A stretch of 64,000 nt of DNA from a candidate division WWE3 bacterium (GTDB taxonomy: Bacteria > Patescibacteriota > 4484-211 > GCA-002791395). The position numbers and the translations under genes were made by a program. The number at the start of each line of letters is the position of its first letter. The stretch's first letter is position 1. Below the pieces are notes generated by a model. That model searched no databases and was not told the DNA's origin. It worked only from the letters and a program-made list of their open reading frames with translations. This document shows positions 1,519 to 2,067 of this stretch, piece by piece. The DNA is taken from assembly GCA_013335095.1 (NCBI GenBank), contig JAAXWF010000001.1, forward strand, positions 445,984-509,983, written 5' to 3'.

Positions 1519-1708
1519 CCGGATCTTTGATCCGGGAGCTACCTCCTCGGTAGCACCCCTGGTCTGATGAACCAGGGTCGAGTAGCAGTGGTACAAACAC
1601 TGAACTACTCATTATGAGGCCTCCTCTTGCACACGCAAGCGGGGGGGTAGCGATTTTAACGCTACCAGAGCCGTCGATCTTTTGATCACGGCTAACAGAG
1701 GGACCTAG
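1519..1708 (+). repeat. internal RNA module X1 (paralog of X2)
   Basis: Hairpin series ccggaTCTTTGAtccgg, cctggtCTGATGAaccagg, cagtgGTACAAAcactg, cttgcACACgcaag, gtagcgATTTTAAcgctac, gccgt..acggc and agaggg..ccccctct, in the same order as X2. Confidence 0.55.
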
Positions 1709-1889
1709 AACCCCCTCTCCACGAGATTATAAGGCGAGTGATGCAGTCATAACTGCATCACTGCTGGAAGTTTGTTTTGTAAAATTGAGTCCTTTGGGAC
1801 TTGGTTTTGCAGAGCAGCTTTCAGCACCCACACGTGACATTGACGTGTGGTTTGAGCCTTGTTCGTGGAACCGTGCCGAAAGGTGCGGA

Positions 1890-2067
1890 TCGCTGTCTCC
1901 TTGACAGCGACTCTGGTGTAATGAACCAGAGGGAGGTGGAAGTGTTTATGAACACTTACCATTTCACATAAGGCATCCTCTCGCGTCGGCGAGCGGATGG
2001 GTGGTGCAGTTTATGCACTACCAGGGCAGCATTCGTGCTGTTAACAGAGGGAATTAGAACCCCCTCT
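1890..2067 (+). repeat. internal RNA module X2 (paralog of X1)
   Basis: cgctgtcTCCTTGAcagcg, ctctggtGTAATGAaccagag, agtgttTATGaacact, ctcgcGTCGgcgag, gtgcaGTTTATgcac, cagcaUUCGtgctg and agaggg..ccccctct. Stems differ from X1 by paired (compensatory) substitutions while loops are conserved. Confidence 0.55.

Follow-up and report, generated by a model that had tools for sequence, protein, structure and literature searches.

What kind of RNA lies between mreB and fmt in the genome of a candidate division WWE3 bacterium, and what could it do? In the stretch analysed here (the window: 64,000 nucleotides of contig JAAXWF010000001.1, numbered from its first letter), an earlier note had drawn attention to two similar strings of hairpins, X1 and X2, inside a putative long non-coding RNA (ncRNA). 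Bacterial RNAs that are both large and intricately folded are seldom found. Most still lack a solved function, and recent work has shown that they assemble in ways that were not expected. To our knowledge, almost nothing is known about ncRNA in the candidate phyla radiation (CPR), and a search of the literature on large ncRNAs of WWE3 or CPR found nothing. Our computations indicate that ~1205-2368 on the + strand is a stand-alone ncRNA gene with its own predicted promoter and terminator, and that its core is a tandem duplication whose predicted unit is a four-way junction (a closing helix and hairpins a, b and c) followed by eight hairpins, H0-H7. We propose, with a probability of roughly 60%, that this ~1,160-nt duplicated-fold ncRNA is an architectural RNA acting in trans, most plausibly as a ribonucleoprotein (RNP) with the membrane proteins encoded in the same genomic island.

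The predicted transcript is delimited and begins as follows.

1171..1198, + strand: promoter of the long RNA, TTGACT, a 16-nt spacer and TATAAT, matching 11 of 12 consensus positions
1205..2368, + strand: the long non-coding RNA (unit B), ~1,160 nt, 35 hairpin loops, ~71% of bases paired
1205..1374, + strand: 5' domain, a multi-branch fold closed by 1210-1218/1332-1340 and then two small hairpins, outside the repeat
2331..2368, + strand: intrinsic terminator of the long RNA, GGGCCGGCACUCC-GAAA-GGGGGCCGGCCC and then a U tract

The promoter, a near-consensus sigma-70 type, is the best-scoring site within 1-3600 and is paralogous to that of a neighbouring cassette, unit A (311-342); transcription from it would start at about 1205. 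The terminator ends the transcript 20 nt from the mreB stop codon and shares 83% identity with the terminator of unit A. In minimum free energy (MFE) folds of 1200-2370, the + strand reached -612.8 kcal/mol and the - strand -505.3 kcal/mol, so that the + strand is more stable by 107 kcal/mol. The + strand fold comprises 418 pairs (71% of bases) and includes 43 G-U pairs, as against 14 in the - strand fold, a strand bias which argues for selection on RNA rather than on DNA palindromes. When all 64 kb were scanned in 150-nt segments, 1201-2350 was the sole long run in which nearly all segments had a z-score (z) below -4, and it was found on the + strand.

No credible open reading frame (ORF) was found inside the long RNA. 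On both strands, X1 is free of ORFs of at least 40 aa, the short ORFs that overlap X2 have no equivalent in X1, and the gene calls of the public assembly leave the region empty. A spurious 107-aa ORF over the long RNA, used as a search query, returned merely three weak, repetitive matches. A protein-coding gene was rejected because no ORF bearing a ribosome-binding site (RBS) covers the conserved region of both copies, and a small-protein mRNA because the 35-59-aa ORFs of the 5' domain lack the cassette-type AAGGAGG RBS and are located within helices. As a separate observation on the 5' domain, six nucleotides of the hairpin loop GUAUGCA (1287-1293) could pair with the single-stranded UGCAUA (1305-1310) just 3' of it, a possible H-type pseudoknot.

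The two hairpin strings have the following composition.

1518..1718, + strand: X1, the hairpin string of unit 1, with H0 1518-1536, H1 1538-1554, H2 1557-1577, H3 1580-1610, H4 1620-1645, H5 1646-1666, H6 1669-1693 and H7 1697-1718
1871..2067, + strand: X2, the hairpin string of unit 2, with H0' 1871-1888, H1' 1890-1910, H2' 1911-1931, H3' 1933-1965, H4' 1974-1999, H5' 2000-2022, H6' 2025-2042 and H7' 2046-2067

The duplication of X1 and X2 within the long ncRNA, as first reported, is present and far above chance, and both copies fold alike. With 1-2400 as the query and the whole 64-kb window as the target, blastn returned a single internal match, 1538-1718 against 1892-2067 (66% identity over 184 nt, E 1e-7), and no further sequence in the window resembling X1 or X2. 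Folded alone, X1 (1516-1720; -99.8 kcal/mol, z -8.4) and X2 (1869-2069; -100.4 kcal/mol, z -8.9) each formed eight hairpins in the same order, z being computed against dinucleotide shuffles. The earlier note had described about seven hairpins in identical order; X1, for which an end at 1708 had been given, extends to 1718 with its terminal hairpin.

At an aligned identity of ~62%, X1 and X2 have lost no hairpin with respect to one another, and 8-10 base pairs are altered on both sides. In a sequence-only MAFFT alignment, 44 base pairs of the two independent folds share columns; eight of these show double-sided changes, six show single-sided changes (wobble), with no pair broken. Shifting the 3' partners by 1-3 columns as a control left 40-54% of cells paired and 0-1 double changes. 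RNAalifold on X1/X2 yielded 48 pairs, with double changes in 10. As a control for selection bias, the MFE structure of X1 itself (58 pairs) was projected onto X2 via the MAFFT alignment, which left 31 pairs unchanged, 6 changed on one side, 9 changed on both sides, 7 broken and 5 gapped, the broken and gapped pairs being located at stems of unequal length. By comparison, 66 substitutions placed at random break 24.8 +/- 3.2 pairs (minimum 13), and the pair retention of the real X2 was matched in 0 of 5000 simulations. These computations point to a structure under selection, whose predicted helices were kept via compensatory and wobble changes after the duplication.

Several details of the comparison changed once the folds were aligned. 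Four of the five stems originally listed as covarying were borne out; the first example (ccgga/tccgg versus cgctgtc/gacagcg) proved to be out of register, as the cgctgtc hairpin of X2 (1890-1910, loop UCCUU) is the partner of the second hairpin of X1 (1538-1554, GCUACC-UCCUC-GGUAGC), and the first hairpin of X1, H0 (1518-1536, ccgga/tccgg), corresponds to 1871-1888. Among the loops described as conserved, YTGATGA/GTAATGA and the terminal loop were confirmed, whereas TCYTTGA pairs the wrong hairpins. The underlying proposal, a duplicated and structurally constrained domain in a stand-alone ncRNA, agrees with the promoter and terminator, the lack of a credible ORF, the strand-specific G-U pairs and the compensatory changes. 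The locus also has the generic features of a large, ornate, stand-alone structured bacterial ncRNA (more than 500 nt, promoter, terminator, exceptional structure and covariation), the covariation behind this assignment being that of internal paralogues only.

The repeat is longer than the ~180 nt first ascribed to it, as the 140-150 nt that precede each hairpin string share a common predicted architecture.

1375..1515, + strand: J1, the four-way-junction domain of unit 1, with closing helix 1375-1387/1503-1515 and hairpins a 1391-1415, b 1418-1476 and c 1479-1498
1719..1868, + strand: J2, the junction domain of unit 2, with closing helix 1719-1735/1856-1868 and hairpins a' 1737-1762, b' 1763-1825 and c' 1828-1850

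Both junctions (J1, -103.5 kcal/mol, z -14.3; J2, -97.1 kcal/mol, z -12.5) follow a plan of a 13-bp closing helix, a hairpin a of 9-11 bp, a long hairpin b of 27-29 bp with a single bulged U and a UUYG loop, and a hairpin c of 8 bp, with conserved linkers AC (b to c) and AA (ahead of H0). MAFFT gave no meaningful sequence alignment of J1 with J2. In an alignment-free test, the dot-bracket structure of 1375-1718 was compared by tree-edit distance with that of every 344-nt segment of the long RNA; besides the self-match there was one sharp minimum, a distance of 76 at 1719-1722 (median 234), which sets the unit at ~345-350 nt (1375-1718 and 1719-2067). According to these model folds, the junction domains have diverged past sequence recognition with every helix retained.

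The extended unit places the loops of the hairpin string beside those of the junction, and several of them are complementary.

1399..1407, + strand: loop of hairpin a, GUUUGUACC, a perfect complement of the H3 loop GGUACAAAC at 1590-1598; candidate kissing loop of unit 1
1747..1752, + strand: loop of hairpin a', UCAUAA, complementary to the H3' loop UUAUGA at 1946-1951 over 6 nt without mismatch; unit 2
1485..1492, + strand: loop of hairpin c, UUCAUCAG, complementary to the H2 loop CUGAUGAA at 1564-1571 over 8 nt; unit 1

The a/H3 match in unit 1 is 9 nt long, spans both 7-nt loops fully and exceeds in length every other complement between unpaired segments of the long RNA; in unit 2, the same two hairpins are partnered through sequences unrelated to those of a/H3. 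Similarly, c' GACAUUG (1836-1842) pairs with H2' GUAAUGA (1918-1924) over 5 bp in unit 2, and the G-to-A change in H2 between the units is matched by a C-to-U change in c. A weaker case is that of the H1 loop and the linker between H3 and H4, where CCUC can pair with GAGG (1616-1619) and, in unit 2, CCUU with AAGG (1970-1973), a possible small pseudoknot kept in both units. In none of 2000 loop shufflings did the number of loop pairs with complementarity in both units reach the observed count, which is inflated by loops simply conserved between the copies; a/H3 and c/H2 are informative because their sequences differ between the units. Both of these predicted pairings are, by computation, retained with unit-specific sequences.

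It appears from these comparisons that the loop conservation noted earlier largely represents RNA-RNA pairing surfaces, and the H2 and H3 loops are probably better explained by tertiary or quaternary RNA-RNA pairing than as free protein- or ligand-binding sites. Of the earlier idea of a modular RNA with repeated binding domains, the duplicated module survives; no evidence of ligand binding was found in this analysis, and the H2 and H3 loops covary with junction loops. Each unit would then be compact and stapled together by kissing loops of its own, which would make the long RNA a covalent pseudo-dimer with orthogonal codes.

Sequence cannot separate loop pairing within one molecule from pairing between molecules, and if the a/H3 and c/H2 complements were intermolecular, the long RNA would be an RNA-only self-assembling particle, a dimer or oligomer comparable to the OLE dimer or the ROOL and GOLLD cages. 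ROOL offers a precedent, as loop pairing called tertiary from covariation turned out there to be quaternary, and in OLE, ROOL and GOLLD both tertiary and quaternary structure are built by kissing loops (PMC12286853). Fully complementary loop pairs occur in both units here, and the 3' module adds a loop-loop complement of 9-10 nt. We nevertheless consider self-assembly unlikely: the partners are ~75-190 nt apart inside one unit, with an orthogonal code for each unit, so that folding in cis is simplest, and the sequence-only analysis gave no sign of abundance or oligomerisation.

Beyond the kissing loops, the stapled pseudo-dimer that we favour carries a further conserved element, the hairpin that ends each unit, and the same type of hairpin recurs in unit A.

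1697..1718, + strand: H7 hairpin, AGAGGG-ACCUAGAACC-CCCUCU, which closes unit 1
2046..2067, + strand: H7' hairpin, the twin of H7, which closes unit 2 immediately 5' of the 3' module
2068..2330, + strand: 3' module B, a multi-branch domain homologous to 869-1102, z -10.4
317..1140, + strand: unit A, the sister cassette, with promoter 317-344, RBS, ORF 483-827, H7-like hairpin 839-868, 3' module A 869-1102 (z -10.0) and terminator 1103-1140

Together with its four leading bases, H7 is identical between X1 and X2 at 24 of 26 nt, compared with ~62% for the whole domain. In the 64-kb window the 25-nt H7 motif occurs twice (0.00 expected), and exactly three hairpins are of the H7 type, AGAGG...NNUARAANC...CCUCU (0.00 expected), each of them at a module boundary. 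The third of these hairpins lies 12 nt past the stop codon of the unit A ORF (483-827), which encodes a 114-aa orphan membrane protein, and just 5' of the shared 3' module. Since H7 is near-invariant, closes each unit and, in unit A, separates the ORF from the 3' module, we infer that it is a recognition or processing mark; alone among the loops, it remains a plausible place for sequence-specific recognition or for processing.

CRISPR and ToxI precursors are processed at repeat hairpins, and the long RNA might likewise be a punctuated precursor from which cuts at or near H7 release active ~350-nt unit RNAs and the 3' module. Such a precursor would agree with H7 being by far the best conserved element, with its placement exactly at the ends of units 1 and 2, and with the third H7 between the stop of the neighbouring ORF and the shared 3' module. 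We judge it quite unlikely, as a nuclease gene is absent from the island, the neighbouring proteins were negative in PADLOC, Pfam and NCBIfam, and the conservation of H7 could instead come from protein binding at this hairpin, from a motif for tertiary contacts or from gene conversion in the recent past.

The 3' modules themselves yielded further observations. A ~270-nt multi-branch 3' domain with its terminator is common to the unit A mRNA (838-1142) and the long RNA (2066-2372), and the two modules have diverged with compensatory changes, z being about -10 for each. In module B, the P1 loop GUUUUUCUUG (2122-2131) complements the large A-rich P2 loop UAAGAAAAAC (2161-2170) over 9-10 nt, while the equivalent P1 and P2 loops of module A are complementary over 5 nt only. 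With regard to H7, the reverse complement of the X2 loop (GGUUCUAA, 2052-2061) matches the stop-codon region of the upstream gene for a 201-aa protein (2-9), and the X1 loop gives a 7-nt match there; the chance expectation of an 8-mer match in the 3-kb island is ~5%, and this match is a lead only.

The H1 loops (CCUCCUC and CUCCUU) are anti-Shine-Dalgarno-like and suggest another function, that of a sponge or regulator whose exposed loops titrate a protein or pair with an RBS. The H1 loops are conserved (UCCUC, UCCUU), CCUCCUC (1543-1549) complements the GAGGAGG RBS (468-474) of the neighbouring ORF, and the abundance of hairpins recalls CsrB and RsmZ. This function is improbable in our view, given that 7-nt Shine-Dalgarno-like matches are frequent by chance, that a partner in cis covaries with the H1 loop (the GAGG and AAGG linkers described above), that no loop motif is repeated and GGA occurs in 0 of 35 hairpin loops, and that the RsmY model scored 17.8 bits against a gathering score of 57, on the wrong (-) strand.

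Homologues were sought at several levels. Neither tRNA genes (ARAGORN) nor Rfam 15 families at gathering score were found in the whole 64-kb window, and the eight sub-threshold matches obtained in 1-2500 at E up to 10 belonged to unrelated small families, with no large ncRNA family among them. A covariance-model search was carried out with a model of the X core (R1), using default filters over the window and 11 related loci and no filters over 1-2500; it recovered X1 (209 bits) and X2 (201 bits) only. Two candidates in relatives were discarded, since in one (L084) a weak R1 match and a strongly structured segment fall inside a protein-coding gene, and in the other (L085) the gene-free gap past fmt reads as an ordinary tRNA. 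Exact-pattern scans for the H7 motif CAGAGGGANNTAGAACCCCCTC gave 0 matches in GTDB genomes, IMG/VR and JGI metagenomes, and the H2-to-H5 pattern CTGGTNTRATGAACCAGN{70,100}CTACCAG gave 0 in metagenomes and IMG/VR. A terminator pattern scan gave 0 matches, and blastn against phage and plasmid collections gave none. A 16-mer of the 3' module had eight matches in IMG/VR, which is the level of chance, and they lacked extended similarity.

The possibility raised earlier that the similarity comes from a transposon-borne repeat present in many contexts was excluded, as no extra copy was seen in the window, the WWE3 loci or any collection scanned. A dispersed repeat, such as a repetitive extragenic palindrome (REP), a miniature inverted-repeat transposable element (MITE) or an insertion sequence (IS) end, was rejected for similar reasons: there are two tandem copies only, with 0 in GTDB, JGI metagenomes, IMG/VR (two motifs), phages and plasmids.

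The long RNA lies in an island of 3.1 kb between mreB and fmt, in which the gene of the 201-aa membrane protein, unit A and the long RNA are all co-oriented.

2389..3450, - strand: mreB, the conserved flank of the island, outside the element

The island has a GC content of 0.49-0.51 (1-2000) against ~0.41 for the genome. In five WWE3 relatives from Logan and JGI, with MreB 71-78% identical, fmt directly follows mreB and the island is absent; the closest MreB relatives in GTDB are just 62% identical. The surroundings of the long RNA contain neither phage genes nor tRNA islands and show no similarity to phages or plasmids. It is very improbable that the region holds no functional RNA and is instead foreign hairpin-rich DNA kept by quasi-palindrome correction (template switching), a relic of a mobile element or origin, or an assembly artefact: the island is indeed private to one metagenome-assembled genome, GC-rich and composed of orphan genes, and the X1 fold is nearly as good on the - strand (-97.7 versus -99.8 kcal/mol), but palindrome correction would neither preserve strand-specific wobbles (43 versus 14 G-U pairs, with the + strand the stabler over the full length) nor make covarying complementary loops in separate hairpins, promoter and terminator frame the region exactly, there are no copies elsewhere, and the junctions are the same in the NCBI contig and an independent Logan assembly (run SRR11449211).

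The two proteins of the island (locus tags HGA91_02385 and HGA91_02390), one of 201 aa and one of 114 aa, matched only themselves among 5.8 billion sequences, and neither belongs to a family in Pfam (including PF01595), NCBIfam, PHROGs or PADLOC. Both have hydrophobic segments and strongly basic tails, with a net charge of +11 over the last 45 residues of the 201-aa protein and +5 at each end of the 114-aa protein. We propose that the long RNA works in trans as an architectural (scaffold) RNA and that it may form an RNP with these two co-oriented, basic-tailed membrane proteins, possibly in the way that OapA holds OLE RNA at the membrane. Of the components of this model, the stapled pseudo-dimer appears to be the best supported, followed by H7 as a recognition or processing site, and then by the in-trans architectural role and the membrane RNP.

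Several points weigh against this model. The link to the membrane proteins is one of adjacency, co-orientation and charge only, and neither protein resembles OapA or a known RNA-binding family. Because there is no orthologue in any collection searched, all of the covariation comes from one pair of paralogous copies in one molecule, that is, from one evolutionary comparison. The + strand transcript is a prediction from sequence, and the detail of MFE folds is uncertain for an RNA of 1.2 kb. J1 and J2 could be analogous rather than homologous, and the kissing pairs of unit 2 are short (4-nt loops in a'/H3'; 5 bp in c'/H2', including one G-U). Furthermore, the island may be a recent acquisition, in which case the selection may have taken place in another (donor) genome.

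In a broader form, the long RNA would be the first member of a CPR-specific class of architectural RNA exceeding 1 kb, a fused pseudo-dimer with orthogonal kissing codes for side-by-side folding or for assembly with further copies, tethered to the membrane as an RNP with the two orphan basic-tailed proteins and marked by H7 for protein recognition or processing. Taken as a whole, this extended claim is rather doubtful. Independently of it, the internal duplication provides a built-in comparison that reveals helices and loop-loop contacts without an orthologue, and the two copies illustrate how a duplicated RNA module diverges and comes to have orthogonal kissing codes with its fold kept. Few candidates for large bacterial RNAs are as long or as densely paired as this one; if expressed, it would be a compact target for chemical probing and cryogenic electron microscopy, and it may join OLE as the second large RNA coupled to membrane proteins. 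That only one metagenome-assembled genome is known to carry it is its weakness.

We also observed that the ~41% GC genome is dotted with short GC-rich (0.52-0.62) cassettes of orphan genes, located in the window at 336-827, 6709-7733, 11788-12093, 15825-18530, 20849-21655, 24069-24758, 28780-29759, 34641-35066, 45822-48757 and 50015-50800. Several of them carry their own promoter, structured leader, AAGGAGG RBS and terminator, and at least two split core genes that are adjacent in related WWE3 contigs (mreB/fmt and dprA/PBP2). Ten cassette proteins were scanned, and a family match was obtained only for a PadR-like regulator (48377-48757). Two tandem paralogous cassettes, at 28700-29250 and 29250-29800, have a common promoter block 'cctataatatatacaaaatac.cattggtagtgtataatg'; their products are single-pass membrane proteins that contain proline-rich linkers and share the C-terminal motif VVI.NNG.G.VTYV.T....C.FVR.CPP. 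The intergenic segments 16188-16363, 16775-16890, 29191-29345 and 24001-24150 (-) also show strong structure, on the same strand as the genes that flank them (z -5 to -8.5 in the 150-nt scan), and structured untranslated regions may be a general trait of these GC-rich cassettes.

Finally, we compared the long RNA with known systems. A hammerhead ribozyme was rejected: the CUGAUGA of H2 in X1 forms a closed 7-nt hairpin loop, its X2 counterpart GUAAUGA alters two core positions, and no hammerhead model matched at E up to 10. A CRISPR or ToxI repeat RNA was rejected because the unit measures ~350 nt at ~62% identity, against near-identical repeats of 28-37 nt, and the neighbours contain no defence or nuclease family. 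The template and variable repeats of a diversity-generating retroelement were excluded, as the changes are not confined to adenines and a reverse transcriptase is missing, and so was an Obelisk- or viroid-like element, as the long RNA is DNA-encoded, ORF-free and not rod-shaped. The CsrB/RsmY/RsmZ sponges resemble it as long strings of hairpins that stand alone with their own promoter and terminator; here, by contrast, the hairpins are all distinct and several loops pair mutually, and the lack of GGA in the loops, together with the sub-threshold, - strand position of the RsmY match, argues against membership. A glycine-type tandem riboswitch likewise consists of two homologous structured domains in tandem, diverged in sequence and alike in fold. 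The units of the long RNA are ~350 nt, as against ~100 nt, no riboswitch model matched, and what follows is a terminator and then the 3' end of the convergent mreB, with no downstream ORF.

Covariance models of GOLLD, ROOL, OLE, raiA and HEARO (Rfam 15) gave no match reaching the gathering score. GOLLD and ROOL share with the long RNA a very large, ornate fold, residence in accessory or horizontally mobile regions, and kissing loops as a main building principle (PMC12286853). They differ from it in being single-copy folds that oligomerise, whereas the long RNA comprises two fused copies of a fold; in addition, no phage genes are located beside it. A further resemblance is to OLE: both RNAs exceed 600 nt, are highly structured and stand alone, and the gene of each lies beside that of a small multi-pass membrane protein. 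The ole gene adjoins the gene of the four-helix membrane protein OapA, a CNNM/DUF21-like protein with a DxxxD motif that binds OLE RNA, and this adjacency was the first clue to a membrane-bound OLE ribonucleoprotein (PMC11332333); kissing loops contribute to OLE architecture as well (PMC12286853). The likeness is in gene arrangement only and does not extend to membership in the OLE ribonucleoprotein, as the neighbours here carry neither a CNNM/DUF21-like domain nor any other family. Moreover, the long RNA is about twice as long as OLE, is internally duplicated and is known from one genome, that of a CPR host; OLE, by contrast, is found widely and its sequence is strongly conserved. The long RNA is thus outside every known family tested; its kin in kind are OLE, GOLLD, ROOL and raiA, from which it differs in length, in being tandemly duplicated with a separate kissing code for each unit, in having a CPR host and in being known from one genome only.

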